This document shows, in pieces, positions 1,694 through 16,821 of a stretch of DNA of 32,000 bases. Numbering within the stretch: the stretch's first letter is position 1; every line of letters starts with the position of its first letter. Made by a program: the position numbers and the translations under genes. The notes under the pieces are model-generated. The model was not told the origin of the DNA, made no database searches, and saw nothing but the letters and a program-made list of their open reading frames with translations. The stretch spans positions 539,789-571,788 of the forward strand of contig JAMWCX010000001.1 of the NCBI GenBank assembly GCA_023818895.1, written 5' to 3'. The stretch comes from Candidatus Omnitrophota bacterium. GTDB lineage: Bacteria; Omnitrophota; Gorgyraeia; 2-01-FULL-45-10.

Positions 1694-3498
1694 TCTATCG
1701 TCTTTCTGGAAAAGTCTTTCATATTAGTTTGCATTTCATACAAATGTTTATAGAGGCCCTGTTTCTTCACAAGATCTTTATGCGCACCACTTTCAACCAG
1801 AACACCTTTATCAAGCACAATAATATTATCAGCCTCCATAATCGTTGACAGACGATGCGTAATCGCAACCACAGTTCTGTTCTTTGTCAGACGGTCTATC
1901 GCGCCTTTTATTAAACGCTCCGTTTCCGTATCAAGAGAGCTGGTTGCTTCATCAAGTATAAGGATATCCGGATCGCTGATGATCGCGCGTGCAATAGATA
2001 TCCGCTGCCTCTGTCCACCAGAAAGCGTAATTCCTCTCTCACCTAGAACCGTATCGTAACCATTCGGAAGGCTCATGATGAAGTCATGGGCCCCTGCGGC
2101 TTTTGCCGCTTCTATAATCTTTTCGTTTTTAACATCAACACAACCATAACAAATATTTTCCCTCGCGCTCTTATTGAAAACGAATATATCTTGGGAAACA
2201 AACCCTATCTTTTTTCTCCACTCAGGTAACGATAAATCCTTTAGGTTAATTCCATCAACTAATATAACTCCTGATGATGGGTCATAAAATCTGAGAATAA
2301 GGTTAACTATCGTACTTTTACCGACACCCGAAGAACCTACGATAGCGGTCACTTTTCCCCGCGGTATATTTATGTTCACCTTATCAAGAACCGGTTTACC
2401 TTCTAAATATGCAAAGCTTACATCTTTGAAATCGATGGAGTCTGAGAACTCTTTCAGCTTGAAGACACCACTTTTTATGACCATTTTCCCTGTATCATCG
2501 TAAATCGCTTCATATCTTTTGAAAGAAGCCAAATTATTAATGGCATCCGAACGAGAGCCATTCAGGGTGTTAAGCTGGGTCAAGGCCCTGATCAAAACCA
2601 AAAGATATGTAGCCATAACTGGGAATGTAGACGCTATGTCTATCCTAACTACGTTGACTAAAAACAGAAAAAGAGCCACTATAAGGAAAAATATCAGTGT
2701 TTCGGATAGCGGAATAAGTAGATTGATATATTTGTTGCTTATATATTGTAATCGCGTCAATTTTTTTATAGAACTAGCAAAATCGCGTTTTTCAATATTC
2801 TCGGTTCCGAAAGTCTTTATTACCCGTATCCCGCTGAAAATCTCGGTCAGTTTGTGGTTGTAATCCGAAATGGCCCGAGAAACATCTTCCCCCAGCTTTT
2901 TCAACCGCAACATAATCATTTCCAGCGGCAATAGAACTCCGGCCACCATTAAAAATATCACAATACTTGCCTTAATCGATATGGCAAAGAGAAGTGCTAT
3001 GTATGTCAAAATTCTGCCTGATATGGCTACAAATTTGAGCGCTTCCATAATGAAACCGCCCATCCTCGTTGTCTCTATAGTAAGAGCGCTTATAAGGTGA
3101 CCGCTATTCGTCATATCATAATATTTGAGATCGTATTCGATAAGCTTATTCATGAGGCCCGTATTCAAATCTCTGATAATGGCGAAGCGTAATTTTGATA
3201 TAAGAACATTTGAAATATAGGAGAATGCGTTCTTTACCGCTATGAGAATAAAGACGATTGAAAATATTATAGATACTGATGAGGCTCCTTCCTTAAAGTG
3301 CAATATTCTGAGGTGCCCCAATAGCGGAATATCGGCAAGCGGGTTTGGCACGGCATTGGTCATGCCCTGCAAAAGCGGTATAAGCATGCCTAAGCTTGCA
3401 CCTTCAAACAAAGACGCCATTGCGATCATAACAAGTGTCGCGCCTGTCAGATAAGGATATTTCTTGAGATATTTGTAAGCAACTCGCAATATCTCCAT
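1690..3498 (-). CDS. ABC exporter, fused permease + ATPase (MsbA/PglK-type half transporter)
   Basis: 602-aa ORF. The N-terminal ~300 aa are hydrophobic with about six predicted TM segments. The C-terminal NBD has Walker A GSSGVGKST, ABC signature LSGGQRQRISIARA, Walker B ILILDEATSSLD and H-loop AITHRL. There is no N-terminal C39 peptidase domain. Confidence 0.9.
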   Translation of the reverse strand: MEILRVAYKYLKKYPYLTGATLVMIAMASLFEGASLGMLIPLLQGMTNAVPNPLADIPLLGHLRILHFKEGASSVSIIFSIVFILIAVKNAFSYISNVLISKLRFAIIRDLNTGLMNKLIEYDLKYYDMTNSGHLISALTIETTRMGGFIMEALKFVAISGRILTYIALLFAISIKASIVIFLMVAGVLLPLEMIMLRLKKLGEDVSRAISDYNHKLTEIFSGIRVIKTFGTENIEKRDFASSIKKLTRLQYISNKYINLLIPLSETLIFFLIVALFLFLVNVVRIDIASTFPVMATYLLVLIRALTQLNTLNGSRSDAINNLASFKRYEAIYDDTGKMVIKSGVFKLKEFSDSIDFKDVSFAYLEGKPVLDKVNINIPRGKVTAIVGSSGVGKSTIVNLILRFYDPSSGVILVDGINLKDLSLPEWRKKIGFVSQDIFVFNKSARENICYGCVDVKNEKIIEAAKAAGAHDFIMSLPNGYDTVLGERGITLSGGQRQRISIARAIISDPDILILDEATSSLDTETERLIKGAIDRLTKNRTVVAITHRLSTIMEADNIIVLDKGVLVESGAHKDLVKKQGLYKHLYEMQTNMKDFSRKTIE

Positions 3499-3503
3499 AT
3501 TAC

Positions 3504-5393
3504 CTATCCCCCCCCTAACAGAGCGCTGAGACTAACTCTTTCGGATTTCTTATAGATATATTCATCAAATAAAGATAAGTCTATTTCTGGATCTATGCCA
3601 AGTTCCAGTATACCACATAGAGCCCGGTTGAGATCATGCGCTTGCCTTACCCAATATACCGCACTCTTCTTAATATCCGCATCAGGTCTTACCTCAAACG
3701 CCGGAATATGACAATACCGACCATTACCTCCAAACAGCAGCACTGGTATATGGTTCTGAAGCGCCTCCTCAATGGTAGTTGATGAAAAACTGACAAGTAG
3801 ATCTGCCATACCCAACACTTCAATAAAAGGTTCTTTAACGCTAAGTACGACATTATCCGAAAATTTGATTAAGTCTGTTATTTCTGCCACTCCGATCTCG
3901 CGCACAGGCCGAAACCTGACAACAATTACGGTATCTGGTATATTTTTCGCTGCCTCGACCAGCTGCCGTACACTCTCTATATACTCATCACTAGTCTCGT
4001 AGATATATGGCCGGGAGCATTTATTTGTGTTTGGCGTACTGGCGTGCACGATTACCCTAGTGCTATCAAGACTACGCCCATGACCGAACATCCTATTAAA
4101 TAAAGCTCGACTTATTTCTCTGTTTACGCTACCACCCCATATTAGCGGACCCGTCTTTAGAAGATTGCTACTCGATGGGAAGATTTTCAGGTAGCCCTCG
4201 GCGAGAGGCGTCTGAAGCGCCAGATACGTAACGGGTAACCTCAGAAGCGTTCTTCCCTGCTCTCCCCACTCTATTTTTTCATATTCATTCTTGGGCTCCA
4301 CAAGAGAACCATGACTAATGAGGATAGTAGAAAAAGCTTTCTTTTTACCAAACTTGGCTAAAGAGGTCTCGTCGAGTCGATTGCCGCTACTTATAATAGC
4401 ATATGGTCTTAATCTGGAAAGAATATCGTCGAGTTCTATCGACCACAGGATTTCACCTATGCTGTAAGAGTATATGGCGTCAGTTAATTTCTTCTTTATC
4501 GGCTCTGCAAAAGGTATGCCTCTATAGGAAAAAATGTCTTTATCGGCATCTATCTTTTTATCCAGGTCATCAAAATAATGTTTTTGCTCAGAGAGCATCC
4601 TATAATGCTTGCCATACAACACACGAATAACCAAATCAGGGAAAGAAAAGGTCGGAATGAGAGGTCCTTCTAACAAGCAAAAGTTCATCCCAGGTAACTC
4701 ATCCTGAAGTTTTTTTATAAGCGCCCCCATCTGGTAATATCGCGTTGTAAATAATACTAGTCTCTTATGAAGACCGTAGTTACGAGTATTAGCTATGGCC
4801 CACATATGGATATATATGTATTTCATGACATAGCGCATAATATCCTTCGCTAAGTCATAGGGTCCATTGTCTTTTATTTTTTCGTCGTCTATATTTTTGA
4901 ATTCAAGTCCCATGTATGATGATATCTTCTCAGCAAAGAATCCGAGATAGTTTTCAAAGGTTTGTATCTGGGCAGTTCTAGCACTTATTCTACGTGATGA
5001 GGCTAAAACCATACATGCTTCATGAGCCCTAATAGCGTTAATAATGACCTCGATTGAACAGAGACACTCATTGACAACAAAGCGAACATAGAAAACAAAC
5101 GAGTTGCGATATGCTTCGTCCATATTCATTCCGAAATCAACGAATTTAGCATTCTCCCTGAACCATCGTATGACCTGCTCAGACTTCTTTACCACGCGCA
5201 TATGTGATTCATTCGTTAGGTATGGCAAGGTATTCTGTGCTTTGATACCGTATCTTTTCAGGCGTACATAAGCCACCGGGTTCATAGCAATAACACAGCC
5301 TAGGGGGTCACAGCCATATTTTGCCGAGTTTTTAACACAGTTATGCGCTTGAGAGGCATCATCGATAAATATAACGCTGTTATTTTTTTTCAT
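3504..5393 (-). CDS. Large orphan protein (629 aa); weak C-terminal resemblance to capsule-type/CMP-sugar GT-B transferases
   Basis: Intact ORF whose ATG at 5393 abuts the upstream TGA (TGAATG). I can assign no confident family motif. The C-terminal LLVSFSSTTIEEALQNHIPVLLFGGNGRY resembles the nucleotide-sugar-binding half of Capsule_synth (KpsC/KpsS)/TagF-like enzymes. The last three codons are a G8 tract. The CDS is very likely real; the function call is weak. Confidence 0.3.
   Translation of the reverse strand: MKKNNSVIFIDDASQAHNCVKNSAKYGCDPLGCVIAMNPVAYVRLKRYGIKAQNTLPYLTNESHMRVVKKSEQVIRWFRENAKFVDFGMNMDEAYRNSFVFYVRFVVNECLCSIEVIINAIRAHEACMVLASSRRISARTAQIQTFENYLGFFAEKISSYMGLEFKNIDDEKIKDNGPYDLAKDIMRYVMKYIYIHMWAIANTRNYGLHKRLVLFTTRYYQMGALIKKLQDELPGMNFCLLEGPLIPTFSFPDLVIRVLYGKHYRMLSEQKHYFDDLDKKIDADKDIFSYRGIPFAEPIKKKLTDAIYSYSIGEILWSIELDDILSRLRPYAIISSGNRLDETSLAKFGKKKAFSTILISHGSLVEPKNEYEKIEWGEQGRTLLRLPVTYLALQTPLAEGYLKIFPSSSNLLKTGPLIWGGSVNREISRALFNRMFGHGRSLDSTRVIVHASTPNTNKCSRPYIYETSDEYIESVRQLVEAAKNIPDTVIVVRFRPVREIGVAEITDLIKFSDNVVLSVKEPFIEVLGMADLLVSFSSTTIEEALQNHIPVLLFGGNGRYCHIPAFEVRPDADIKKSAVYWVRQAHDLNRALCGILELGIDPEIDLSLFDEYIYKKSERVSLSALLGGG
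3508..3515 (-). repeat. G8 homopolymer (C8 on + strand) at the junction of the 629-aa ORF and the ABC exporter
   Basis: Read directly. The coding strand is TTA GGG GGG GGA TAG GTA AT ATG GAG. The tract encodes the terminal GGG of the 629-aa protein and ends 9 nt upstream of the exporter ATG (3498). It is the only G/C run of 7 or more that I found in the window. Confidence 0.9.
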
Positions 5394-6746
5394 TCAATCG
5401 AACCATTCTTTTATAAGTGGTGATACGATTTTGAAATCCTCTTCGTTCCTCACCTCAATTGATGAGCAGTTGTCTTTCACTTCATAAATACCTATCTTAT
5501 CCCCCAACAGGCGCCCGTTTCTTAAAAATTCTGGATGCGTAACGCATCCTATGCCCCTGAGTTCTATGAAAGTTGGATCTTTAAATTTTCTTGGCGTGAG
5601 CCCTTCATCAAGTTGCACTATGCCTCCGGCCCTCTGCTTCCATATTGCTTTATTCTCAATCTTTGCAGCAGTAACACTATCCAGGCCGCTCTGCGTCAGC
5701 CGTACTATCATGTCATCTATCAGGCCTTTCGCGCGAAAAGGAAAGGTGATCTCGAGCGACACAACAAGATCCGGATATATGCCCATGCTCTCCAGCTTTT
5801 GAAGAGAATATTGCAGAACCTGATCTAAATTAACATGCTCTTCGGATAGGGCTTTTTCGCGGATGAAAGGAACTTCTGCCCCTAGCTCCTTCGCAATCTT
5901 TGCCAGCTGGAGGTTATCCGTAGATACAATTATCTTCTTAACATGCTTAGAATCGACCACTCTCTTTAAGGTATAATCCAACAGCGGTCTTCCGTTCAAA
6001 TATTGCACGATGCCGCGCACGGGTATGATAGCAACTATATTAAGCCTATCTATATCTATCGATTTGTAACTATAATCATTATGGAGGCCTTCCAGTATCC
6101 TCACAACATTGGCGCATCTTTCTTCGTTACCATTCTGGTGGATGCCGTGATAATGATATACGCTCGCTTCTGGCTCATATACTATCTTATAGCCTGCACT
6201 GAGAACCTGTTTAGCCCAAACCCTATCTTCGATATTGGTTACCGTTTCATCAAACGGGATCTTTTCCCAAATAGCTTTTCTGATAATGCTATTTGCATTA
6301 TGAAAAAAACTGTCCTTAATCTGGATCTTCCGGTCTAGGCCGAAAATAAGCGCCAAATCACGTTTATCCGAATCCGATGTAAAGTCCAGTGGTTCTTGAC
6401 GTCCATATACACCGGCAATAGACGGATCGCCTTCGAGACTGCTGACAAGGCACGTCAACCATGAACGATTAACCGGTATACAGTGACCGGAGAGGCAGAC
6501 AAGCATCTCACCTTCAGCAGTCCTCATTCCAATATTAAGAGCTTTCCCGGGCAAATATTCATCGCAAGTCAATATTCTTGTAACAGCGAACGCCTTTGCC
6601 TTCTCGATTGTCTTGTCAGTACTTTTATTATCTACTATGATGACTTCAAAATCTCTATAATCCTGTTCGAACACACCGGCAAGACATTGAGATATCCAGC
6701 GTTCTTCATTTTTGGTTCTTACAATTATTGAAACCTTCTTTTTCAC
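5394..6746 (-). CDS. Fusion protein: N-terminal family-2 glycosyltransferase + C-terminal cytidylyltransferase-like (NeuA/KdsB fold) domain
   Basis: 450-aa ORF with a GTG start at 6746. The N-terminus VSIIVRTKNEERWISQCLAGVFEQDYRDFEVIIVDNKSTDKT is a classic GT2 opening. From about residue 235, IVAIIPVRGIVQYLNGRPLLDYTLKRVVDSKHVKKIIVSTDNLQLAKIAKELGAEVPFIREKALSEEHV matches the CTP_transf_3 layout, but the GSK/GSTR...KN phosphate-binding loop is shortened. Confidence 0.75.
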   Translation of the reverse strand: MKKKVSIIVRTKNEERWISQCLAGVFEQDYRDFEVIIVDNKSTDKTIEKAKAFAVTRILTCDEYLPGKALNIGMRTAEGEMLVCLSGHCIPVNRSWLTCLVSSLEGDPSIAGVYGRQEPLDFTSDSDKRDLALIFGLDRKIQIKDSFFHNANSIIRKAIWEKIPFDETVTNIEDRVWAKQVLSAGYKIVYEPEASVYHYHGIHQNGNEERCANVVRILEGLHNDYSYKSIDIDRLNIVAIIPVRGIVQYLNGRPLLDYTLKRVVDSKHVKKIIVSTDNLQLAKIAKELGAEVPFIREKALSEEHVNLDQVLQYSLQKLESMGIYPDLVVSLEITFPFRAKGLIDDMIVRLTQSGLDSVTAAKIENKAIWKQRAGGIVQLDEGLTPRKFKDPTFIELRGIGCVTHPEFLRNGRLLGDKIGIYEVKDNCSSIEVRNEEDFKIVSPLIKEWFD

Positions 6747-6748
6747 TT

Positions 6749-7498
6749 CTACCTTTTCCTTCCGATATTCCTTATAATCCTATCATACCTCGGCACGTAT
6801 CGCTTATACGATGCCATCGCAGTCATTAAATAATCAGCTAATTTCAGGTCTTCTTCTTTTTTTACGATAAAGGAGGTAAGTTTGCTAACACCAAAATACC
6901 CGACTTTCCCGCATAGAAGAGCATAACCTCTAGTTTCAAATGCCTTCCGGAACGTCGACGATCTCCACATCATCGTTGAATAGACAAATTGCTGTACGGG
7001 TATAAGATCCTGTGTTTGGGCAAATACCTCGTTGATTTTGAAATTCACGGGGGTACCATTATAAATACAATGCACTTGTTCATGCTTGACCGTCATAAGC
7101 GAGTCCAATCCTTTTGCGCGAAAATACTCGACCATCTTTCGCACCTCCGCACCCTGCTGAAAAGGCGCAATTGGACTAATCCAAGCTACAATATCGCATG
7201 GATATTTACTCACAAAATCATATACAACCACATCGGTCTTGGTGGTCGGACTCACGATACTATCAGGCCTTTTGTAGAAATCTACCCCATATCTACAGGC
7301 TATTTTTGAGAATATTTCATCTTCGGCATTCACGATTATCCTGTCAAAAACACCGGCTTCCATTGCTGCTTTTATCGCATAATAAATAAGCGGCTTGCCG
7401 CCAACAAGCGCAAGATTTTTCATCAAGAGCCGCGTGCTCCCAAGCTTTGCTGGTATCATAGCAATAGTAGAGCATTTCGCCATACAGCTTTCCTCCAT
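6749..7498 (-). CDS. Cytidylyltransferase (acylneuraminate/KdsB family)
   Basis: 249-aa ORF. IAMIPAKLGSTRLLMKNLALVGGKPLIYYAIKAAMEAGVFDRIIVNAEDEIFSKIACRYGVDFYKRP fits the KdsB/NeuA N-terminal CTP-binding pattern (IPAR-xSxR-xxxKN...GKPLI). The ATG at 7498 overlaps the upstream TAA (TAATG). An internal ATG at 7483 (MAKCST...) is preceded by GGAGG and may be the true start. Confidence 0.75.
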   Translation of the reverse strand: MEESCMAKCSTIAMIPAKLGSTRLLMKNLALVGGKPLIYYAIKAAMEAGVFDRIIVNAEDEIFSKIACRYGVDFYKRPDSIVSPTTKTDVVVYDFVSKYPCDIVAWISPIAPFQQGAEVRKMVEYFRAKGLDSLMTVKHEQVHCIYNGTPVNFKINEVFAQTQDLIPVQQFVYSTMMWRSSTFRKAFETRGYALLCGKVGYFGVSKLTSFIVKKEEDLKLADYLMTAMASYKRYVPRYDRIIRNIGRKR

Positions 7499-8577
7499 TA
7501 GGAAAATAGCCTGTAAAATCTGTCGAAATATCGCTTTTTCAGCCGCGCAATAAGACTTGCTCTGAAATCCCCTTCTAATCCCAGCCTCAAGAGATCGTAT
7601 AAGCCTATCTCGCGGTAATCAAGCGCCCGTATGGCCAGTTGAAGAAGAATTGTCCCTGCGCTTACCGGTAAGGCTCGGCCTTTAGCTAGCGATTTACCAA
7701 CTTGCGATTGCCTGGCACAAAAGACACGACTAAATTCATCAATGTATATTATCCAGAAACCATGCCGTTCAAGCACCGTAGCAAGACTTTTTGTATCGAA
7801 ACAATAATTGAACTCAACATCAAAATATCCTGAGGTATTGAGGGCACCGTAGTAGCGAATGTTAGGCGTCTCAATAAATATATATCCATCTGGGGCGATT
7901 ACTGCAGAAAGATGCGCCATGAACCGGTTTATATCCGAAACGTGGCCAAGGACATGCGAAAGTATAATAACCTTAGGCTTTCTGAGTTCAAACTCATAGG
8001 TCATCAAATCAGCTTCAACTATATCTATACCGTGTCGCCTGCCGCATTGGGCAGGGACGGAATCCAGCTCTATGCCCAGCACCGAAAACCCAAGCTCCTT
8101 CCACGGCAGAAGGTTAGCTCCGTCATTACATCCAAGCTCTGCGATAAGGTCACGACCCGGCACAAGATCAGCAAAGTGGGAAATGAACTTTTGTCGGGGA
8201 CGGGCAAACAATCTAAGCCGTTTTTTAAATAAATTCTCTATTTCAAGCTCCGATAGCCCTTTACCGCGCAACGCATACGATAGAGTCTGATAATGCCGCC
8301 TGGCAGCCGAATCATTCAGGATTCGGGATTTAAAGCAGCCTTCACAACTATCACAGATCACCACTTCCGAAGGTAGAAACTTCTTGCTTACTTCGGATAT
8401 CTTTGTAAAATCCTTGCCGCCACAGTACGGGCATTGCGAAACGTTCACATAGTTGACATCTTTGTAGATTTCACGTAAGAAAACCCGCCGCGCTTCGACC
8501 TCAGCACTGCTGAGTCCTTCGGGTTCTAAATCTTTCCTAAATTTGTGTTTGGCGCTGAGCAATCTTTCAGTTATCAT
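7498..8577 (-). CDS. Class I SAM-dependent methyltransferase with N-terminal Cys4 zinc-ribbon
   Basis: 359-aa ORF. It has a CPYCGG...(~20 aa)...CDSCEGC zinc-ribbon-like motif. SAM motif I is LIAELGCNDGANLL, with post-I ELD and ILSHVLGHVSD further on. Confidence 0.7.
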   Translation of the reverse strand: MITERLLSAKHKFRKDLEPEGLSSAEVEARRVFLREIYKDVNYVNVSQCPYCGGKDFTKISEVSKKFLPSEVVICDSCEGCFKSRILNDSAARRHYQTLSYALRGKGLSELEIENLFKKRLRLFARPRQKFISHFADLVPGRDLIAELGCNDGANLLPWKELGFSVLGIELDSVPAQCGRRHGIDIVEADLMTYEFELRKPKVIILSHVLGHVSDINRFMAHLSAVIAPDGYIFIETPNIRYYGALNTSGYFDVEFNYCFDTKSLATVLERHGFWIIYIDEFSRVFCARQSQVGKSLAKGRALPVSAGTILLQLAIRALDYREIGLYDLLRLGLEGDFRASLIARLKKRYFDRFYRLFS

Positions 8578-8592
8578 AGAATCCGCTTACTC

Positions 8593-10302
8593 CTATAAAC
8601 GCATTGAAGTCTTTAAAACTTCTTCTTTCATAACGGAGCTATCCCGATTGATAATCGACCGCTCCTCTTCCTTCAAGCGTTTTATGACTTGTCGCAGGCC
8701 TATACCAGGCTGGTTAATTATATTACAAGCCACCCCCGATATGGGATCCGTTGTATGACCATGCTTATCCGAAACACTCCAACATTCTCTTTTAAGTAGG
8801 CGCTTGAATATCAATAGTATCGTCTTACCTAAGCCATATATCTTTATCATATGAAAAACTATGTCCGGTTTTAAATATTTTCTGACCAGATATAGCAGAT
8901 TGTTCCTGCTGTAATGGCGTAGTAGAGCTTCATTTACCATATCTGGCCAGGCTCGCACTTTTTCAACCGGTTCCGATGTAAAATTTATAAATGAGCTTCT
9001 TAATACGTGGTTATGGATATCAGAAAAATAGATATCGGAAAGATAGGCGTCCTCATCCCCGATCTTTCCAGTAAGCCTGCCAAAATCATACAGTGGAGAG
9101 CCCGGCAACGCAAATGCATAACTGTATTGATAGCAATAAGGGCCATAATTAATGGCTTTCAGGAATTGCACATTTTCTTCTATCGTCCGCTCATTCTCTC
9201 CAGGCATACCGAAAACGAAGTTCGGACACATGTAAATACCCGCTTTTTTGGTCCATATCGCTACATCTATATTCTGCTGAAGGGTCACATTCTTTTCCAT
9301 CATATCGAGCATCTTCTGGCTACCCGACTCAATCCCATATTCAATCATGTAACAACCCGCTTCCTTGTAGGCACGGAGTATGTCATAATCGACTGTATCG
9401 ATCCTCATCCCAAGGATTTGGAACATAATATCAAGTTTACGCCTGTGCAGCTCATTGAGAAATCCCCAATTCCATTCTTTCCCTGCCGCGAAACATTCAT
9501 CACCGAAAGAGAATACGTTTACTCCGAACTTATCCATAAGGAATTCTATATAATCAAACATATATTTGAAGGAGAAATGGCGCAGCCCCTTAGTAATGCG
9601 ATAGCAGAATGCACAACTGTTGACGCACCCCCTGCTTAAGGATACCCGTAACAGATGCTTGCTCCGATGCTTGTCAAAGAAGCGTTTATCAGGATTTTTA
9701 TAATGCCGCGACGCGGCCAGAAAACGCTTTACTTCGTACAAATACTTCTTCATGTCAACCAAATCGAATGCCGGATACGGAAGGGTATCCATATCAGCTA
9801 TCAGCGGTCTCGAGCCGGTATAAATCGGGTCTTTGCCATCTTTATAGGCGATCCCTTTCACATTATTAAAAACTTTTTTTGATACGTTTTTAGAAGCGAT
9901 CTCCTGTATTGTAGAATCGCCCTCCCCTATGACAACAACGTCGACAAGCGAATTCCTAAGCAGCGGATCCCATGCAGCACCAAGCCCGCCTCCCACAACG
10001 ATTAAGATTTTCGGAAATCTTAATTTTATGAGAGCGCTTATATCTTTTACATATTTATATGACGTCGAGATGATAGCGCTAATACCCACTATATCAGGAT
10101 CGAATTCATCAATCACTTTGAGAAGATCAGCGCTACTCATGTGGTCAACATCACATGTAGAAATTCTGACATCGTGACCCTGCCTGATAAGGGCGCTGGC
10201 TATGTAGAGTGCACCATATGGCGGATCAGCAAACGCCCGCTCCCGTACTGGTGGGAATAAAGAGTAGTCTTGTGCTGGAGCAACAATAAGCTGAATTTTC
10301 AC
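8593..10302 (-). CDS. B12-binding-domain radical SAM enzyme (class B rSAM)
   Basis: 569-aa ORF with a GTG start at 10302. The N-terminal cobalamin-binding domain reads DIVGISAI...ILIVVGGGLGAAWDPLL...VDVVVIGEGDSTI, with MDTLPYPAFD. The radical SAM cluster motif is SRGCVNSCAFCYR (CX3CX2C). There is no Cys-rich SPASM/twitch tail. Confidence 0.85.
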   Translation of the reverse strand: MKIQLIVAPAQDYSLFPPVRERAFADPPYGALYIASALIRQGHDVRISTCDVDHMSSADLLKVIDEFDPDIVGISAIISTSYKYVKDISALIKLRFPKILIVVGGGLGAAWDPLLRNSLVDVVVIGEGDSTIQEIASKNVSKKVFNNVKGIAYKDGKDPIYTGSRPLIADMDTLPYPAFDLVDMKKYLYEVKRFLAASRHYKNPDKRFFDKHRSKHLLRVSLSRGCVNSCAFCYRITKGLRHFSFKYMFDYIEFLMDKFGVNVFSFGDECFAAGKEWNWGFLNELHRRKLDIMFQILGMRIDTVDYDILRAYKEAGCYMIEYGIESGSQKMLDMMEKNVTLQQNIDVAIWTKKAGIYMCPNFVFGMPGENERTIEENVQFLKAINYGPYCYQYSYAFALPGSPLYDFGRLTGKIGDEDAYLSDIYFSDIHNHVLRSSFINFTSEPVEKVRAWPDMVNEALLRHYSRNNLLYLVRKYLKPDIVFHMIKIYGLGKTILLIFKRLLKRECWSVSDKHGHTTDPISGVACNIINQPGIGLRQVIKRLKEEERSIINRDSSVMKEEVLKTSMRL

Positions 10303-10327
10303 AACCTACGCTCTCCCATAAAATAAA

Positions 10328-11386
10328 TCATGGAAATGGCACCCCATATTCTTCTGCCAATGCGATGAGTGCTTCATATTCAATTTTGGTGAGTGGTATT
10401 CCTGCTTTTTCTCTCTCACTCCTCTTCTTTTTCTCAGGATCGCCCGAAACCATAACCGGATTATGTTTGTCTATCGCAGGAGAGCTTCTGAGATCATTCA
10501 TTAAAAGCGACATTCGCTTCTTAAATGCCGATACTGGCTGAAAACAGTCTATTCTTACTGCTATCATGAAATGTCCGAGCATGCGATGTTGGCTCATGGG
10601 TGCCTCGAACATTTTCGGTATATTAGGCCCATATGGCATTCCGGTTAGTAGACTGCAAAGTACCTCTATCATCAAGCTAAGACCGTAACCCTTATATCCG
10701 CCAATAGGCAATAGTGTCGTTATCTTGTGCGGATCCGTCGTCTCCACCCCATTCCTATCGGCACCAACGCCTGGAGGCGCCTCCAGACCAGAATCTCTAA
10801 GCTGTCGTATCTTATTGAAAGTGACTACGCTTGTCGCCATATCTAGGCAAAGTGGTTCCTCATCTTCACAGGGAACGGTAAAGGCAATTGGATTATTGCC
10901 CAGAAAAGGCTCTTTGCCGCCGTGAGGTTTGATAAGAGCATCCGTATTAGTGAAACTGAATCCTATCATATCATGTTTCGCAATTTCAAGAGCATAGTAG
11001 GCAGCGGCACCAAAATGGGATGAATTATATACGGCTACATGACCTGTCCCTGCTTCTTTAGCAAGCTCTATGGCTTTGCGAACGGCTTCCATACCTGCCG
11101 CATGGCCAAAGGTATGATCGGCATCGAGCTTACCGGTCGAGGCGGAGGTACGCTTGAATACATATTTTGGATCAGGATTAATGCGTCCGCCCTTAACTCC
11201 CTTAAGATAATGAGGAAATAGCCTCAAGCCGTGCGAATCAACTCCTCTTAGCGAAGTCTGAACGAGGCCGTCTGTGACGTAAAAAGCCACATCGCGCCTA
11301 ACGCCAGCCTTAAGCATGATATTCATCATAAAATCATGAAGGCTCTTAGCCGAAACCTTTATCTCTTCTATCGCTTTAGATTTCAT
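10328..11386 (-). CDS. Ldh_2-family NAD(P)H-dependent 2-oxoacid/imine reductase (malate/L-lactate/sulfolactate dehydrogenase type 2)
   Basis: The ORF track gives 10328-11407. I prefer the internal ATG at 11386 (MKSKAIEEI...), which forms an ATGA overlap with the upstream stop (11383-11386). SLRGVDSHGLRLFPHYLKGVKGGRINPDP and HFGAAAYYA are typical of the Ldh_2 family. Confidence 0.8.
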   Translation of the reverse strand: MKSKAIEEIKVSAKSLHDFMMNIMLKAGVRRDVAFYVTDGLVQTSLRGVDSHGLRLFPHYLKGVKGGRINPDPKYVFKRTSASTGKLDADHTFGHAAGMEAVRKAIELAKEAGTGHVAVYNSSHFGAAAYYALEIAKHDMIGFSFTNTDALIKPHGGKEPFLGNNPIAFTVPCEDEEPLCLDMATSVVTFNKIRQLRDSGLEAPPGVGADRNGVETTDPHKITTLLPIGGYKGYGLSLMIEVLCSLLTGMPYGPNIPKMFEAPMSQHRMLGHFMIAVRIDCFQPVSAFKKRMSLLMNDLRSSPAIDKHNPVMVSGDPEKKKRSEREKAGIPLTKIEYEALIALAEEYGVPFP

Positions 11387-12558
11387 ATGCCCTTCACTTC
11401 TACCCACTCGCTTCCTTTCTTAAGGCTCCTGTCCACTCCTTCTATGACGGCCGTTGAGATAAGCGATGTTCTGAAGGTCGGCCTCTTAGCCTCTAATTCT
11501 TTTATAGTAACTGCCCCCTTCTCTATGTCCGATACATCCTGCAAAAATGTTTGAATACTCTTTATTCCGTAACCGCGGTATTCAACTTCACCCGGCCGGC
11601 CGTATGCAGCACAAAAATAAGGGTTAAACGTCTCTATTCCACGTTTATCACTTATCATAGTTATACCCCTGTCTTTCTGATCCGATTCAAAACGCCCTTG
11701 AGCACCTATTACCTTTATGCGCTGATCTGACATCGCTGAAGTAGAGTCGGGATCTATCCAGTTCGTAATGATGTGCGAGCTAAACTTGTTGCCGGAACTC
11801 CCGTGCCATTCAATCACCGCCTCTATAGCATCATAAGTATCAAGACCTCGCCTTAATAGCCAGTTCTTTTGGCCTATCGCCATTACACGCATGGGCTTCG
11901 CGCAAGTTGTATAATATATAATATCCACATAGTGCACACCAAGATAATTGAATATATTCGTCGTACTTGCCCATGCCCTGAACACCTTTAAAGGCATAAC
12001 CTTTCTCTGGCTAAACTCAATGATGAAATAAAGAAGATCGCCCAACGCTCCGCTGGCTATCACATCCTTCATTTTTATATTAGCGTCGTCAAACCTTTTG
12101 TGGAACTCTACCGCACAATAAACCCCGTGTTCATTTTGCGCCTTTATAAGCCGTTTTACCTCTTTTACTGTAGTTGCCAGCGGTTTCACTACAAGAGTAT
12201 GAAAACCATGCTCTATCGAATATTCCGCAATATCAGCATGAAGCGAGTCCGGTACAGCGATAATGCATGCAGCGGGTGTGCGTATATTCCGCAAGACTTT
12301 TTTGTACGCTTTCACATCACAACCGTTTTGAGGATAATATTTGATATCGGCGTTTACACCCATTAAGCGCCCAAGCGCAATGGTTTTCTTTGACGCTGCC
12401 CTAGCACTTGACGACTTGGTGGTCACAATAACTACTTGACCAACTTGGTCATGCCGTTTTGCCTCAAGAAGAGCGGGCATTATTGTGCCATAGCCTTCAA
12501 CACCTCTTCCGCACACATACATACCACCACCGACTACAACAACATTAATAGACTTCAT
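11383..12558 (-). CDS. Gfo/Idh/MocA-like NAD(P)-dependent oxidoreductase
   Basis: The track ORF starts at a TTG (12564). The ATG at 12558 (MKSINVVVVGGGMYVCGRG) has GAGG 6 nt upstream. There is an N-terminal Rossmann GGG motif. HTLVVKPLATTVKEVKRL corresponds to the EKP motif region, followed by VEFHKRFD. Confidence 0.65.
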   Translation of the reverse strand: MKSINVVVVGGGMYVCGRGVEGYGTIMPALLEAKRHDQVGQVVIVTTKSSSARAASKKTIALGRLMGVNADIKYYPQNGCDVKAYKKVLRNIRTPAACIIAVPDSLHADIAEYSIEHGFHTLVVKPLATTVKEVKRLIKAQNEHGVYCAVEFHKRFDDANIKMKDVIASGALGDLLYFIIEFSQRKVMPLKVFRAWASTTNIFNYLGVHYVDIIYYTTCAKPMRVMAIGQKNWLLRRGLDTYDAIEAVIEWHGSSGNKFSSHIITNWIDPDSTSAMSDQRIKVIGAQGRFESDQKDRGITMISDKRGIETFNPYFCAAYGRPGEVEYRGYGIKSIQTFLQDVSDIEKGAVTIKELEAKRPTFRTSLISTAVIEGVDRSLKKGSEWVEVKGI

Positions 12559-12577
12559 AGACAACCTCGTAACCGGC

Positions 12578-13684
12578 CTAAATTAGTCCTTTTTCCTCGA
12601 TAAGACCTTTAACGTAATTTGAAATAGCCAAAGATGCCGTAAGCGCAGGTGACTCCATTCCCCATAAGTCCAGCCATCCCGGCTCAGGCGCCCACTCGAA
12701 TCTGAAGTCTTCCACTCTTTCATTCGGGCCGTATATCCTTGGCCTTATTCCAGCACAATCAGGATGGAGGCGCGTTACGTCTATGGAAGGCAAATAGCTC
12801 TTAATCGTTGCCGCCATCTCATCAACGATGTTTGCGCGTACATTAAAGTCATCAAGATCACGTACTTCTTCGGTGTTGGGGCCAAAACGCAGCGATCCAT
12901 TAAGGTCCGGTGTTGCATCCACCCTCTCCTCTATAACTCCCGGTGTTATCGAAGAATATACGATATGACTTACGGGGGATGGGCCGGAAAATCTTATATA
13001 GCACCCTTTCGAAGGATAAAGTTCGGCTGTTTTCCTACCGGGGAAGACTTTTTTGCTCAACTGTATCGCGTACAGCCCTGCTGCATTTACGACAAGCCGC
13101 GCCTTTATAGACGAAGCCTGCCTGCCACCTACTCTAACCTCCCAACCGGACGAAGAACGTTCTGCTCCCACCACAGGCGCTCCTCCTGCAAATATCACGC
13201 CTTTTGATTTTGCAATACTAAAGAGCGCCTTCATAAAACCGTGGGAATCGAATATCCCTGAAGACGGTGAAAGTAGCGCAGCTATACCGTCGAGTAACGG
13301 CTCTAGTTTCCGCAGCTGTCTTCTATCTAGCTCCACAATGTCAGTCACGCCATTACTCAGAGCTTGTTTACGTGTAGCCTCCAGGCGCGAAAGCTCTTCC
13401 GGACGCCTGGCAATTAATAACTTACCTATCTTTTTCACCCGAACTTTATTATCTTCGCAGAAGTTGTACAAAAGGTCTCTACCACTCCTGCATAATAAGG
13501 CCTTGAGAGATCCTGTCTGGTAATACATACCGGCATGTATTGTCTCTGTGCTCCGCGATGATATCCCCATGCCGTACTTTTCCTCTTTCTCAAGCAGGAC
13601 AACTGAGAGGCCACTATCAGCCAGCTTATTAGCCACTGCCAGCCCTATTACACCAGCGCCTATCACTACTGCGTCTGTTTCCAT
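12578..13684 (-). CDS. FAD-dependent oxidoreductase (DAO family; L-2-hydroxyglutarate oxidase / glycerol-3-phosphate dehydrogenase-like)
   Basis: 368-aa ORF. DAVVIGAGVIGLAVANKLADSGLSVVLLEKEEKYGMGISSRSTETIHAGMYYQTGSLKALLC combines a GxGxxG dinucleotide fold with the xSxRxSxxIHAGxYY pattern I associate with LhgO-type flavoenzymes. Confidence 0.75.
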   Translation of the reverse strand: METDAVVIGAGVIGLAVANKLADSGLSVVLLEKEEKYGMGISSRSTETIHAGMYYQTGSLKALLCRSGRDLLYNFCEDNKVRVKKIGKLLIARRPEELSRLEATRKQALSNGVTDIVELDRRQLRKLEPLLDGIAALLSPSSGIFDSHGFMKALFSIAKSKGVIFAGGAPVVGAERSSSGWEVRVGGRQASSIKARLVVNAAGLYAIQLSKKVFPGRKTAELYPSKGCYIRFSGPSPVSHIVYSSITPGVIEERVDATPDLNGSLRFGPNTEEVRDLDDFNVRANIVDEMAATIKSYLPSIDVTRLHPDCAGIRPRIYGPNERVEDFRFEWAPEPGWLDLWGMESPALTASLAISNYVKGLIEEKGLI

Positions 13685-13687
13685 GTC

Positions 13688-14815
13688 TTACCTAATCGAT
13701 TTCGGATCCTCTGCCATTAAAGTATCTCTGAATTGGCTTACAAAAATTTCCATGATCGGCCTCGGCGCAGCTGTAACCGAGAATCCTGTATCATACGGCG
13801 CAGGCCAGCCCCCGCGCACATACACTTTACGAAGGCGCAAGCCCTCAACAACATCCGCGGAACGTTTCTTGGAATGCATTTCTATATATAGGAAGTTGGA
13901 GGCCTCCCCGCCATTATGTTCTACGCCGAGTGCATCTAGTTCGCCCTTGAGATACTCAAGACCATCACGTATATCTTTCACGTAATTTTTGACAATATGA
14001 TAGTTCTCCAGGAAATACCCCGCGACTGCCATTGAGAGGGTATTTGTTTCGTATCCAGTACGTGTCTTAGAAACGTAATCTATATATCTCGCAGGCCCTA
14101 TCAGATACCCCAAGCGTATTCCCGCAAGTCCAAATGCCTTTGAGAATGAGCGCATAATGAAAATGTTTTCGAACTCGTCTATGAGTTTCATTGCGCCGGG
14201 GGGACCAAACTCAAAATAGACCTCGTCCACCACAAAGAAGGTGTTGTTCTCGAGACACCTCTTTGCGATGTGCCGCATCTCTTCAGTTCCAAGAGTGCCC
14301 TCTATGGGCACATTAGGGTTTGGTATGAATAAAAACGACGTTTTTTCATCAAGCAATGACATCATTTTTTCAATATCTAGCCTATATTCGGACGTATATC
14401 CGAAAGTCTTATAGTCTACACCGAACATCCTGCAGTAGACAGGATATAAGGCGAATGTCGGGAGGGGGAATATGATATTGTCTCCCGGGCTTGCAATCGA
14501 TTCGATGAGAGACTTTATCGCACCCGAAACGCCCTCAGTTATATAAAGCCGCTCTTTTCCGATGCCGAGCCATGAGGCCAGCCTATCATAGAAAGGCATT
14601 ATATCAGGGTAGAGGTTAAAATTACTCCGCGCTATCCTGTCGCATATGGCATGCATCGTCTCTTTGTCAAACGGGACCACCCTTTCGTTCCGGTCGAGGT
14701 ATAGCCCTGACGAAACATCTCTGTATGCACCCACCCTGGTCCGTTCCAACATCTCAAGCCGCAACTTTAAATTTTTTTTCATCTTCACTTTTATCCGATG
14801 GGCTATTCGCCGCAT
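13688..14815 (-). CDS. Class I/II PLP-dependent aminotransferase (HisC/CobD-like)
   Basis: 375-aa ORF. MRSFSKAFGLAGIRLGYLIG carries the PLP-lysine motif (SxSKxxxxxGxRxGY) and NPNVP is an NPNNPTG-like motif. The ATG at 14815 overlaps the upstream gene by 13 nt. The alternative start is ATG 14782 (MKKNLKL). Confidence 0.8.
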   Translation of the reverse strand: MRRIAHRIKVKMKKNLKLRLEMLERTRVGAYRDVSSGLYLDRNERVVPFDKETMHAICDRIARSNFNLYPDIMPFYDRLASWLGIGKERLYITEGVSGAIKSLIESIASPGDNIIFPLPTFALYPVYCRMFGVDYKTFGYTSEYRLDIEKMMSLLDEKTSFLFIPNPNVPIEGTLGTEEMRHIAKRCLENNTFFVVDEVYFEFGPPGAMKLIDEFENIFIMRSFSKAFGLAGIRLGYLIGPARYIDYVSKTRTGYETNTLSMAVAGYFLENYHIVKNYVKDIRDGLEYLKGELDALGVEHNGGEASNFLYIEMHSKKRSADVVEGLRLRKVYVRGGWPAPYDTGFSVTAAPRPIMEIFVSQFRDTLMAEDPKSIR

Positions 14816-16818
14816 TTGACCAATACTTTATCGCTACCCCACCGCCTCATATAGTCATCCCTGGCCCTGTCCATAGCTTCGGCTTGGGTCTGGCCTTTTT
14901 CTAGACTTTCCAGGAGGGACTTTATATATCCCCCGATCCTCTCGCCTGCCCTGCCGTCCCTGAAAGGCTCTATCTCATCAATGTGCGGCGCCCAGCCCAG
15001 ATAACCGGCTTCCCGCTGAGGGTCCTTTTTCATCTTCTTCAGGAAATCTATCAACCTGTCTATGTCGTCAAATACTATCTTGTCGTATCCCCATATATAT
15101 AAAGGGTTGGAGCGGTGGCCTGGCAAATCGCACAGAACTCCCCTGGAACCAGTAACAACAGCTTCTATCACAGCCGAGGATATGCCTATGCCAACGGCTA
15201 TATCTGCGTGACGCGCTACCTGTGACGGAAAATAGCCCGCACTATTATTAAGCCTTACCAGACGGCCCGTCTTTAAGGCGTCCGAAAAGACCTTATCTAT
15301 GTCCGGAAGACTATCGAAGAAGCTGGATTGTTTTTTCTCTTTCATGATAATGGCAAGCCCATCATCTTCTATAAGCCAAGCCAGGAACTTTTTGTAGAAA
15401 AGCGCCATCATATTCTTACTGAAAGGTCCTTTTGTATTATATGCGTTGTCAAAAAGCGCTATCGTAAAGGCGCGCTTCGGAACTCTACGCCCATCTTCCA
15501 AAAAAATACTTCCTGATAGGGGCTTATCCTGGAATGCGGCATCGAAAGGATAACCCGATATAATGAATTCCCTTAAGGCCCTACTCGTGCCGCGGTGGGT
15601 GGTAATTACGCTGCCCCATACGAAGAGGAGATGATTAGCATTGTAACGTAAGGCATACTGATACTCGGTCCCCTTAAGCGCTGAACGCTGGGCGCCGATA
15701 CGTATCCCCCCTGTCATATCGAGAGCTATCCTTTCGGCCACCAACTCAAGATGCGGAGCACTCAGATCAAATACGACCTTTATATTGAAAAGCTTGTAGA
15801 ACCTGAGAGCCATGGTTATCTGGACAGACAATGTTCGGAAGTTGTCCACTATCCAGCGATCGACGCCTTTTGCCCCTCCCGTTTTTAGTTTCGGCACCTC
15901 GTCATAGTTAAGGCGAAATGCCGGGTTCTTCTGTCTAGAAACCTTTCTTCCCTGCAAGTGAAGTATGCTTTCGTAAAGACATACCCACGGAATACCAGTA
16001 CGCTCAACCTCATCAATAACAGCTCCGGAGATAGGCACTTTGGCATTCCTGTAATGGTCGAAATATATAAGCATTCTGCCTGCTCCTATACCTGACCGCC
16101 TATACCAGAAAATGTCCGATTTTTTTTCAGTATCAGCCCCGTCCACAAAATGCACAGCCACGCGCCCTGAACGGTCCGATAGATCCAAGCCCTCTCCTAC
16201 CAACCTGCGCAGGAAGAACCTTTTATTAAACGCATCCCGTACTGCATTCTTCAGGGCATACAAGGCATACGCCGGCGAGTAATATGTCCTAACCCTTATA
16301 TACTCGTTCTCTCGCAACGAAGTAAGCTCCTTGGAAATCGGCGTGGAGGGACATAGGACCAGTTGCAAAGTCTTGTCGCAACTTGCAGAAACATGCCATC
16401 TCACGATGGACAGAAGCCTCGCTACAAAGAACAAATCTTCGCAGATCTTGAGCTCAAAAAATATATCCACTTCTTCTTCGGGAAGTCTGGAGATAATCTC
16501 TTTATAACGCTCCCTGGTTTTCAATCTCGTAAGTATCTTGCGGGCGAGGTTCGTCAGATCTATCTCAAAATTCACTCCCATTGATCGACCGTCCACCTTA
16601 AGGTCAGCCAGGGAATACGAATACTTAAGCATTTCTATTCGGGTATTGATCAGCCTTTCAAAACATGGTATAAACGCCCGGACAGCCCAAGAGGCCTTTT
16701 CGTAATGCACCCTCAGACACTTATTGCCAAAAGACAGTGCTACAAGGGTGGGGAGTGCCGCAAGGGACGCATTGTGTATCCATACGTCCGTTATCATGAC
16801 CCATGGAGTCCAAATCAT
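14803..16818 (-). CDS. Large orphan protein (671 aa); possible GT-B-like transferase
   Basis: Intact ORF with AAGGAG 9 nt upstream of ATG 16818. I recognise no family motif. The C-terminal half (ADIAVGIGISSAVIEAVVTGSRGVLCDLPG...IVFDDIDRLIDFLKK) loosely resembles the donor-binding half of GT-B/capsule-type transferases. The CDS is very likely real; the function call is weak. Confidence 0.3.
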   Translation of the reverse strand: MIWTPWVMITDVWIHNASLAALPTLVALSFGNKCLRVHYEKASWAVRAFIPCFERLINTRIEMLKYSYSLADLKVDGRSMGVNFEIDLTNLARKILTRLKTRERYKEIISRLPEEEVDIFFELKICEDLFFVARLLSIVRWHVSASCDKTLQLVLCPSTPISKELTSLRENEYIRVRTYYSPAYALYALKNAVRDAFNKRFFLRRLVGEGLDLSDRSGRVAVHFVDGADTEKKSDIFWYRRSGIGAGRMLIYFDHYRNAKVPISGAVIDEVERTGIPWVCLYESILHLQGRKVSRQKNPAFRLNYDEVPKLKTGGAKGVDRWIVDNFRTLSVQITMALRFYKLFNIKVVFDLSAPHLELVAERIALDMTGGIRIGAQRSALKGTEYQYALRYNANHLLFVWGSVITTHRGTSRALREFIISGYPFDAAFQDKPLSGSIFLEDGRRVPKRAFTIALFDNAYNTKGPFSKNMMALFYKKFLAWLIEDDGLAIIMKEKKQSSFFDSLPDIDKVFSDALKTGRLVRLNNSAGYFPSQVARHADIAVGIGISSAVIEAVVTGSRGVLCDLPGHRSNPLYIWGYDKIVFDDIDRLIDFLKKMKKDPQREAGYLGWAPHIDEIEPFRDGRAGERIGGYIKSLLESLEKGQTQAEAMDRARDDYMRRWGSDKVLVKCGE

Positions 16819-16821
16819 TCT

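Follow-up and report, generated by a model that had tools for sequence, protein, structure and literature searches.

In Shewanella, the 8-amino sugar Kdo8N is made from 3-deoxy-D-manno-octulosonate (Kdo) by oxidation of a hydroxyl of this 2-keto-3-deoxy sugar acid, transamination (by KdnA, which acts on Kdo after the oxidase KdnB) and activation with cytidine monophosphate (CMP). In the aci/ela and lgaABCDEF loci of Acinetobacter baumannii, oxidoreductase genes are added to a legionaminic acid set and lead to a different CMP-activated nonulosonic acid (NulO), namely acinetaminic or 8-epilegionaminic acid, by a route that is biochemically uncharacterised; and in the amidation of the HS:2 capsule of Campylobacter jejuni (Cj1437, Cj1436, Cj1438C and Cj1435), an aminotransferase dependent on pyridoxal phosphate (PLP) supplies a small amine with which a surface glycan is decorated. 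Here we describe four consecutive genes at positions 10328-14815 of a 32,000-nucleotide stretch of the genome of a Candidatus Omnitrophota bacterium (contig JAMWCX010000001.1; we call this whole stretch ‘the window’), which encode an aminotransferase (AT), a flavoprotein (DAO), a dehydrogenase of the Gfo/Idh/MocA family (GFO) and a dehydrogenase of the Ldh_2 family (Ldh_2).

The window is a NulO island of the legionaminic type, and the order of the four genes recurs in other genomes far beyond chance. We propose, at a probability that we would put at roughly 45%, that they belong to an accessory module which recurs in legionaminic/pseudaminic-type islands and makes a second CMP-activated acidic sugar. 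The likeness to the Kdo8N pathway is one of logic; KdnB is an iron-type alcohol dehydrogenase and not a DAO flavoprotein, and the present module adds Ldh_2, GFO and a fusion of a glycosyltransferase family 2 (GT2) domain to a cytidylyltransferase domain. In A. baumannii, by contrast, AciB and AciE are short-chain dehydrogenases (PF00106, PF13561), no aminotransferase, DAO or Ldh_2 has been described, and the products are epimers and not amino derivatives; capsule amidation in C. jejuni likewise differs in having no dedicated dehydrogenase or cytidylyltransferase and in needing an ATP-dependent amide ligase and a HAD phosphatase.

Linkage and architecture of the module

The four reading frames lie on the minus strand, at the positions first given for them, within a 28-gene same-strand array that spans the whole window, and the families to which the preliminary description had assigned them are borne out by Pfam. 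AT (13688-14815) is a class I/II, HisC-like PLP aminotransferase (Aminotran_1_2, PF00155, 1.2e-39, 137 bits) in which the motif SFSKAFGLAGIRLGY is found, and DAO (12578-13684) is a flavoprotein of the L2HGDH/3DME/GlpO clade that carries flavin adenine dinucleotide (FAD) (Pfam DAO, 9.1e-54). GFO (11383-12564) is a divergent NAD(P) dehydrogenase of the Gfo/Idh/MocA family (GFO_IDH_MocA, PF01408, 8.6e-11, 43 bits vs a cut-off of 24; GFO_IDH_MocA_C3, PF22725, 1.7e-9, 38.1 vs 27), and Ldh_2 (10328-11407) is a member of the family whose name it bears (PF02615, 2.1e-109, 366 bits). The genes are tightly packed, with spacers of 3 nt between AT and DAO and 13 nt between DAO and GFO, and with the stop of GFO overlapping the start of Ldh_2 in an ATGA at 11386-11383. 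The true start of AT is probably the ATG at 14782 (364 aa, matching P0121), 20 nt past the stop of the upstream orphan gene orf671, and that of Ldh_2 is probably 11386 (352 aa, matching P0001); the outer limits 14815 and 11407 would therefore be those of the longest open reading frames (ORFs). Scans for terminator-like and promoter-like sites within the operon were uninformative, with most sites inside coding sequence: terminator-like hairpins between 3000 and 20000 numbered 25, vs 14.0 (standard deviation 3.8) in shuffled sequence, and almost all of them fell within the operon's genes.

Homologues of every window gene were mapped in 108 loci (numbered with the prefix L below), 19 of them anchored on Ldh_2 in reference genomes, nine from exact-protein look-ups and 80 anchored on AT in metagenomes; these metagenome relatives were found with an AT alignment as the query, the single AT sequence having found none. 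Wherever AT orthologues of at least 39% identity had enough sequence downstream, DAO was present (30/30) and in 27 of the 30 it followed AT directly. GFO and Ldh_2 form a second pair: of the 13 loci anchored on close Ldh_2 orthologues, 11 have GFO as the immediate upstream neighbour of Ldh_2 and one has AT-DAO; GFO is often found with neither DAO nor AT (12 of 13). Two further genes at 5394-7498, both with cytidylyltransferase domains, belong to the same module: CTP3_2 (6749-7498, minus strand), a cytidylyltransferase of the NeuA-like, CMP-ulosonate-synthetase type (Pfam CTP_transf_3, 4e-15), and GT2CTP (5394-6746, minus strand), in which Pfam finds a GT2 domain joined to one of the CTP_transf_3 family. 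Twelve AT-DAO loci have 5 kb or more of contig on each side; 11 of these hold all four genes and nine hold all six. Since GFO-Ldh_2 is found mostly without AT-DAO, and AT-DAO mostly with GFO and Ldh_2, the AT-DAO pair is an optional extension of a wider core.

The four-gene unit as originally drawn was thus mis-bounded, consisting as it does of two pairs within a larger module, of which Ldh_2 and CTP3_2 are the most constant members, GFO and GT2CTP are near-constant, and AT-DAO is an optional adjacent pair. The four-gene order itself, whose conservation in other genomes had been suggested as a test, is conserved: AT-DAO-GFO-Ldh_2 is contiguous in at least 10 independent loci (L010, L032, L040/L080, L051-L053, L063, L068, L087, L092 and L095/L096), and the four genes occur in permuted order in L001, L024, L026, L029-L031, L043, L067 and L089. 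In 39 of 66 loci the gene immediately upstream of AT is of the CTP3_2 type; the order seen most often in marine loci is CTP3_2-AT-DAO-GFO-Ldh_2-GT2CTP, and orthologues of GT2CTP (46-70% identity) are present in most loci. Next to AT in many loci is either a hexapeptide acyltransferase or a protein of about 200 aa that is a marginal GNAT member (23.8 and 23.3 bits vs 20.7, with a third member below). One variant, L081, has the order Hexapep-CTP_transf_3-AT-DAO-Ldh_2-Hexapep and, on a Pfam check, no GFO within 10 kb.

Synteny with glycan genes holds in more than 60 loci from several phyla, and many of the loci have NulO-core or acetamidino genes no more than 10 kb away. The named carriers are Omnitrophota, Planctomycetota including Brocadiaceae, Sumerlaeota, a Nomurabacteria metagenome-assembled genome (MAG) of the candidate phyla radiation (CPR), a Deltaproteobacteria MAG and Halobacteriovoraceae, to which are added many marine metagenome contigs.

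Several observations bear on the history of the module genes. Across phyla, identity to the window proteins is 64-79% for Ldh_2 (L001-L022) vs about 54% for GFO, about 52% for AT and 27-44% for orf629, the orphan that follows GT2CTP; the high conservation of Ldh_2 points to unusually strong constraint or to recent horizontal spread. The island of L032 (contig Ga0082335_1000012) is in nearly identical order to that of the window, at 54-73% protein identity, with a GNAT-like gene added before AT and a gene of about 350 aa (family f12) after Ldh_2, and this contig may come from a genome related to the window's. A screen of module members for fusions gave a single case, a 549-aa protein in L100 (9320-10969) that joins CTP_transf_3 to an AT-like Aminotran_1_2 domain; on its own this is weak evidence, because the two genes are separate, and overlap, in the sister loci L097 and L101. 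The AT proteins of the L100 subgroup are 35-38% identical to that of the window; they are not accompanied by DAO and have genes of the radical SAM/SPASM type in their vicinity.

Family distances and active-site signatures

None of the four proteins reaches the cut-off of any NCBIfam equivalog, so that none is shown to be a housekeeping enzyme, in line with what had been supposed. AT scores 179.1 bits against HisC (TIGR01141; cut-off 276.55) and is distantly HisC-like among solved structures (95 bits). The best named NCBIfam match of DAO is the L-2-hydroxyglutarate oxidase LhgO (NF008726; 177.4 bits, cut-off 299); it aligns over its full length with type 2 glycerol-3-phosphate oxidase (NF033460) at 128.5 bits with a cut-off of 460, and its matches in the PDB are 3DME (uncharacterised Bordetella Bp3253; 243 bits), L2HGDH (107) and GlpO (61). 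GFO matches inositol 2-dehydrogenase and UDP-GlcNAc 3-dehydrogenase best, each at about 72 bits (cut-offs 355 and 450), with a best PDB match of merely 38.6 bits; a Rossmann motif VVGGGMYVCGRG, a VKP motif and an H-x-x-D motif can be read in its sequence. Ldh_2, finally, falls under all equivalogs of its family (AllD, 240 vs 496; sulfolactate dehydrogenase, 235 vs 500; PRK10098, YbiC-type, 191 vs 336; YiaK, 157 vs 316) and is about equidistant from all characterised clades with solved structures.

The residues of DAO were mapped through HMMER alignments and an alignment of 45 orthologues. In the published structure of L2HGDH, 2-oxoglutarate is bound by Ser88, His92, Tyr289, His302 and Arg393, which are strictly conserved in L2HGDH homologues and in 3DME; the H302A mutation abolishes activity, and mpGlpO has no equivalent of His302. 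DAO shares the fold and clade of L2HGDH/LhgO and Bp3253, and H50, R254, D256 and R314 are invariant in all 45 orthologues; the equivalents of His92, Tyr289 and Arg393 are kept (the catalytic His and the distal-anion Arg in 45/45, the Tyr in 44/45). It differs from L2HGDH in having an invariant Asp in place of His302 and an invariant Arg in place of Gly300, such that Arg-x-Asp replaces Gly-Val-His, and in the position of Ser88, which is Thr in 26 and Ser in 19 of the 45. Given these changes, DAO is neither a canonical L-2-hydroxyglutarate enzyme nor mpGlpO-like, the latter having K-G-V-I at this point.

In AT, for which 65 orthologues were aligned, the PLP Lys (K226), the Arg of the GIRLGY motif (R234) and R334 are invariant (65/65), with R334 aligning to the first C-terminal Arg of HisC. 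At the second C-terminal Arg of HisC (‘gmRisiG’ in 3hdo), the window AT has Ser, and Arg is found in 6 of the 65 orthologues, at moderate alignment confidence. That second Arg anchors the phosphate or carboxylate of the substrate in HisC; judged by its sequence signature, AT is a distinct subfamily that usually does without it.

CTP3_2 matches PF02348 at 56.7 bits (cut-off 22.6) and the PseF model at 67.7 bits (cut-off 205.7), and its PDB matches are NeuA enzymes of the CMP-sialate synthetase type, covering residues 10-139 only, the nucleotide-binding half. In GT2CTP, the cytidine triphosphate (CTP) loop is degenerate, reading IPVRGIVQYLNGRPL vs IPARGGSKGLPRKN in CTP3_1 (the PseF-like cytidylyltransferase of the window), and the cytidylyltransferase half of this fusion may be non-catalytic.

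Two orphan proteins accompany the module. The first, orf629 (629 aa; 3504-5393, minus strand), is syntenic after GT2CTP in most loci and has faint sialyltransferase-like matches, all far under their cut-offs (BFO_1060 family, 22.5 bits; DUF6716, 16.1; polysialyltransferase, 13.1); it is a candidate transferase for the module product. The second, orf671 (671 aa; 14803-16818, minus strand), regularly lies upstream of the GFO/AT block, with a protein of its family in 12 of 28 early loci, and is homologous to proteins of about 680 aa in L005 and L013 (HHalign probability 99.95%); it has no Pfam or NCBIfam match. An AlphaFold2 model of orf671 from a four-sequence alignment had a mean predicted local distance difference test (pLDDT) score of 43, and Foldseek returned nothing for it at E<=0.001, with TM-scores of at most 0.14; the model was discarded. 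That orf671 and orf629 might be paralogues was considered and rejected (BLASTP E 0.36, HHalign probability 0.1%).

Proposed chemistry and competing explanations

Synthesising these observations, we suggest the following scheme for the module, in which the substrate would be an ulosonic acid or a precursor of one and the product would be distinct from the legionaminic-type acid of the upstream genes. DAO would use its FAD to oxidise a secondary alcohol of an anionic substrate, adjoining the anionic group, to a ketone, which AT would then convert to an amine with PLP; in those lineages with an adjacent GNAT or hexapeptide acyltransferase, this amine would be N-acylated. GFO and Ldh_2 would carry out NAD(P)-linked redox steps, that of Ldh_2 being at the carbon next to the carboxylate, and CTP3_2 would activate the product with CMP. 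GT2CTP, orf629 or orf671 might then install it, and the glycoconjugate would be exported by the ABC transporter encoded at the low end of the window. Ulosonic acids that bear an additional amino group have two precedents: Tenacibaculum maritimum has an 8-amino nonulosonic acid, and KdnB is catalogued as the 3-deoxy-D-manno-octulosonate 8-oxidase that performs the first step of Kdo8N synthesis.

The general notion in the preliminary description, that these genes serve to add a further amino substituent, is supported, and one of its three specific versions holds in part. This drew on gentamicin tailoring, and the window does combine a dehydrogenase, an aminotransferase, a methyltransferase dependent on S-adenosylmethionine (SAM) and a B12-radical-SAM enzyme, as do GenD2/GenS2, GenN and GenD1. 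The logic of oxidising, transaminating and methylating therefore stands as an analogy, but as one of logic only, because the dehydrogenase coupled to AT is the flavoprotein DAO and not GFO. The pairs of flavoenzyme and aminotransferase that perform 6'-amination in neomycin and kanamycin resemble AT-DAO more closely than do GenD2/GenS2.

The boldest reading is that the product of the module is a hitherto undescribed CMP-activated acidic sugar, either a NulO with a third amino group, placed by the L2HGDH-like flavoprotein and the HisC-like transaminase, or a 2-ulosonic acid made without a NeuB-type aldolase, through oxidation of a free sugar at C1 (by GFO) and then at C2 (by Ldh_2). This we regard as possible though doubtful; were it true, the tailoring of sugars would have drawn in three enzyme families that are known for their action on small central metabolites (L2HGDH/GlpO-type flavoproteins, HisC-type transaminases and Ldh_2).

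A number of points weigh against a second CMP-activated acidic sugar. The roles of the enzymes, and their product, are predictions from sequence; L2HGDH/GlpO-type flavoproteins are known for small C3-C5 substrates and not for sugars, and Ldh_2 enzymes for simple 2-oxo acids; and the window has a single NeuB-type synthase, which leaves the origin of a second ulosonic acid unexplained. Among relatives, the one chemically analysed case that we found, the S-layer glycan of the anammox bacterium Kuenenia, which may or may not carry the module, consists of five N-acetylhexosamines (HexNAc) and a methylated deoxyhexose with no acidic sugar, and therefore gives no chemical handle on the module product. 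Finally, AT-DAO occurs without GFO or Ldh_2 within 10 kb in L023 and L027/L028. In the latter (10001-17733), the pair sits beside genes for ATP sulfurylase, a member of the pyruvate kinase family, a member of the LtaS/sulfatase family, a TagF-like glycerophosphotransferase and a fusion of CTP_transf_3 to Aminotran_3, and appears to be used in a different, teichoic acid-like context.

Of the alternatives, the one that survives best, which we nonetheless hold to be unlikely, is that the module makes a linker. Here Ldh_2 would reduce a central 2-oxo-diacid (2-oxoglutarate or oxaloacetate) to a non-standard 2-hydroxy-diacid, serving as an O-glycosylated, amide-linked spacer in the glycan, with DAO and AT turning hydroxy acids of this class into amino acids in some lineages. 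Spacers of this sort have been seen in published structures, the O-antigen of T. maritimum having 2-hydroxyglutaric acid linked to its 8-amino NulO, and Flavobacterium psychrophilum having O-glycosylated, amide-linked malic acid, but the paper on the genetics of the T. maritimum O-antigen names none of the families of the module. The alpha-carbon of carboxylic acids is where Ldh_2, L2HGDH-like DAO enzymes and class I/II aminotransferases typically act, and orf629, itself faintly NulO-transferase-like, directly adjoins Ldh_2 in L018 and L022. Against this, Pfam identifies no amide ligase, acyl-activating enzyme or ATP-grasp protein among the ORFs of the window, DAO lacks the His by which the C1 carboxylate of 2-oxoglutarate is bound, and the reading does not account for how tightly AT is linked to a NeuA-like cytidylyltransferase.

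Rather improbable, in our judgement, is a route through dihydroxyacetone phosphate (DHAP), raised at the outset by analogy with C. jejuni, where Cj1437 has been reported to transaminate DHAP to (S)-serinol phosphate. DAO would be a glycerol-3-phosphate dehydrogenase making DHAP, or a CDP-linked analogue, and AT would give serinol phosphate to decorate a glycan. The full-length alignment of DAO with type-2 GlpO, the Ser/Thr, His, Tyr and Arg that it shares with mpGlpO, the R334 kept by AT, and the TagF-like and LtaS-like genes beside AT-DAO in L027/L028 are all in keeping with this. As DHAP is ubiquitous, however, an obligatorily adjacent dehydrogenase (30/30) would be redundant unless its substrate were something other than free glycerol-3-phosphate, and the score against the GlpO model is far short of its cut-off (128 bits vs 460). 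No ATP-grasp ligase or HAD phosphatase is identifiable by Pfam among the 28 ORFs of the window (three being orphans without a family), so that the partners Cj1438C and Cj1435 have no identified counterpart there, and the serinol phosphate route as first put forward is unsupported. It would also leave unexplained the commonest neighbour of AT, a NeuA-like CTP_transf_3 protein; we know CTP_transf_3 enzymes as ulosonate cytidylyltransferases, and know of none that acts on phospho-alcohols.

A third alternative, the NeuB-free 2-ulosonic acid mentioned above taken as an account of the whole module, seems to us improbable. GFO would oxidise C1 of a free aldose to an aldonic acid and Ldh_2 the C2 hydroxyl to a 2-keto acid, which CTP3_2 would activate and the GT2 fusion transfer, with AT-DAO aminating it in some lineages. 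Such a scheme would suit the finding that Ldh_2 and a NeuA-like cytidylyltransferase are the most constant pair, and that the window has one NeuB but three CTP_transf_3 domains. The Gfo/Idh/MocA family includes aldose 1-dehydrogenases, and D-xylose 1-dehydrogenase and aldose-aldose oxidoreductase are among the weak matches of GFO; the Ldh_2 family includes the sugar-acid 2-dehydrogenase YiaK, but it is to the YiaK clade that the window Ldh_2 is least similar (157 bits vs about 240 for AllD and ComC). The scheme is drawn purely from family chemistry, and no CMP-activated 3-hydroxy-2-ulosonic acid is known to us.

The remaining version from the preliminary description, in which GFO is a WbpB-like sugar 3-dehydrogenase that reduces 2-oxoglutarate, AT acts as WbpE does and DAO closes the loop by re-oxidising L-2-hydroxyglutarate, has fared badly, and we consider it highly improbable. 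That L-2-hydroxyglutarate oxidase is the best named match of DAO (177 bits), that GFO weakly matches UDP-GlcNAc 3-dehydrogenase (71 bits) and that all four genes are together in most long loci would each fit. DAO, however, has Asp in 45/45 orthologues at the position of the essential His302, and it occurs without GFO in L081, L023 and L027, while GFO is itself often without DAO or AT (12/13). WbpE is a DegT-family enzyme, unlike the class I/II AT, and of the 21 PDB matches to GFO at E<=1e-5 none bears the name WbpB or WlbA, as judged from depositor names, behind which such a protein could be hidden. The idea that housekeeping genes (HisC, LhgO, and a malate or lactate dehydrogenase) have come to lie in the island by accident, for which the labels ‘histidinol-phosphate aminotransferase’ and ‘ureidoglycolate dehydrogenase’ carried by orthologues in source records might speak, can be dismissed, being refuted by scores below every equivalog cut-off for all four proteins, by synteny across more than 60 loci and by the altered active-site signatures.

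Island context and significance

The legionaminic character of the island is seen in its core genes, with a NulO synthase, a hydrolysing 2-epimerase and a CMP-NulO synthetase all encoded in the window. In NCBIfam, the first two score above their cut-offs (NeuB_NnaB, 447.9 bits vs 399.65; NeuC_NnaA, 469.5 vs 235.9) and the PseF-like cytidylyltransferase CTP3_1 slightly under (173 vs 205.7); the core also holds a DegT aminotransferase cut by the window end, a PglD-like acetyltransferase and a PtmE-type CBS-nucleotidyltransferase. The tailoring genes of the window include WbuX/HisH/HisF, a PIG-L deacetylase with a formyltransferase, two sulfotransferases and a NanM-type O-methyltransferase.

The flanks of the four-gene block are as they had been described, with B12-binding radical SAM genes on both sides, the orphan orf671 and a methyltransferase. 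Upstream, beyond orf671, lies the first B12-radical-SAM gene (16822-18453; Pfam); downstream is the second, rSAM_B (8593-10302, minus strand; Pfam), whose type is often found directly after Ldh_2 (L001, L005, L010-L015, L017, L032 and L040/L080). A SAM methyltransferase (Methyltransf_23, Pfam 9.2e-16; 7498-8577, minus strand) is a common companion of the module, with orthologues in L001-L006, L014 and L015. The exporter, of ATP-binding cassette (ABC) type with fused transmembrane and ATPase domains (1690-3498, minus strand; Pfam ABC_tran and ABC_membrane), has orthologues syntenic with the module in L001, L005, L008, L010 and L011.

Among the tailoring genes, the acetamidino-forming trio at 21801-24584 is complete (a WbuX N-acetyl-sugar amidotransferase, 349 bits vs 203, with HisH-like and HisF-like proteins) and accompanies the module in L001, L013-L015, L023, L029, L032, L081, L088 and L092. 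At 25294-26837, a PIG-L de-N-acetylase adjoins a two-domain formyltransferase, which suggests that N-formyl replaces N-acetyl on the nonulosonic acid or its precursor. Two sulfotransferases at 18354-21772 stand either side of a 459-aa orphan with no family match; genes for the synthesis of 3'-phosphoadenosine 5'-phosphosulfate (PAPS) are absent from the window, and an adenosine 5'-phosphosulfate (APS) kinase is present in L026 and the ATP sulfurylase of L027 adjoins AT-DAO. The last complete gene before the low end of the window (731-1693) encodes the NanM-type putative sugar O-methyltransferase (70.9 bits vs 44; no Pfam match), an orthologue of which lies beside CTP3_2 in the Nomurabacteria locus L020. 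The downstream third of the array, from the ABC exporter to rSAM_B, has a G+C content of 39-44% vs 46-48.5% in the remaining island, a step that suggests a mosaic origin of the gene array.

In the recognition of bacterial surfaces, nonulosonic acids play a major part. Specialists regard the enzymes that modify them as poorly known, and our literature search found no paper linking the four families considered here to these sugars. What is known is the tailoring of nucleotide-activated sugar acids by oxidation and transamination; what is new is the set of enzyme families used and the architecture of the module. The analysis supplies diagnostic signatures for both members of the optional pair, namely Arg-x-Asp in the flavoprotein and the missing second HisC arginine in the transaminase, and the loci with and without AT-DAO offer a natural comparison that predicts a specific difference in glycan mass. 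Should an ulosonic acid prove to be the substrate, the module would account for the origin of extra-amino sugars such as the 8-amino NulO of T. maritimum, and would provide new catalysts for the making of sialic-acid analogues.

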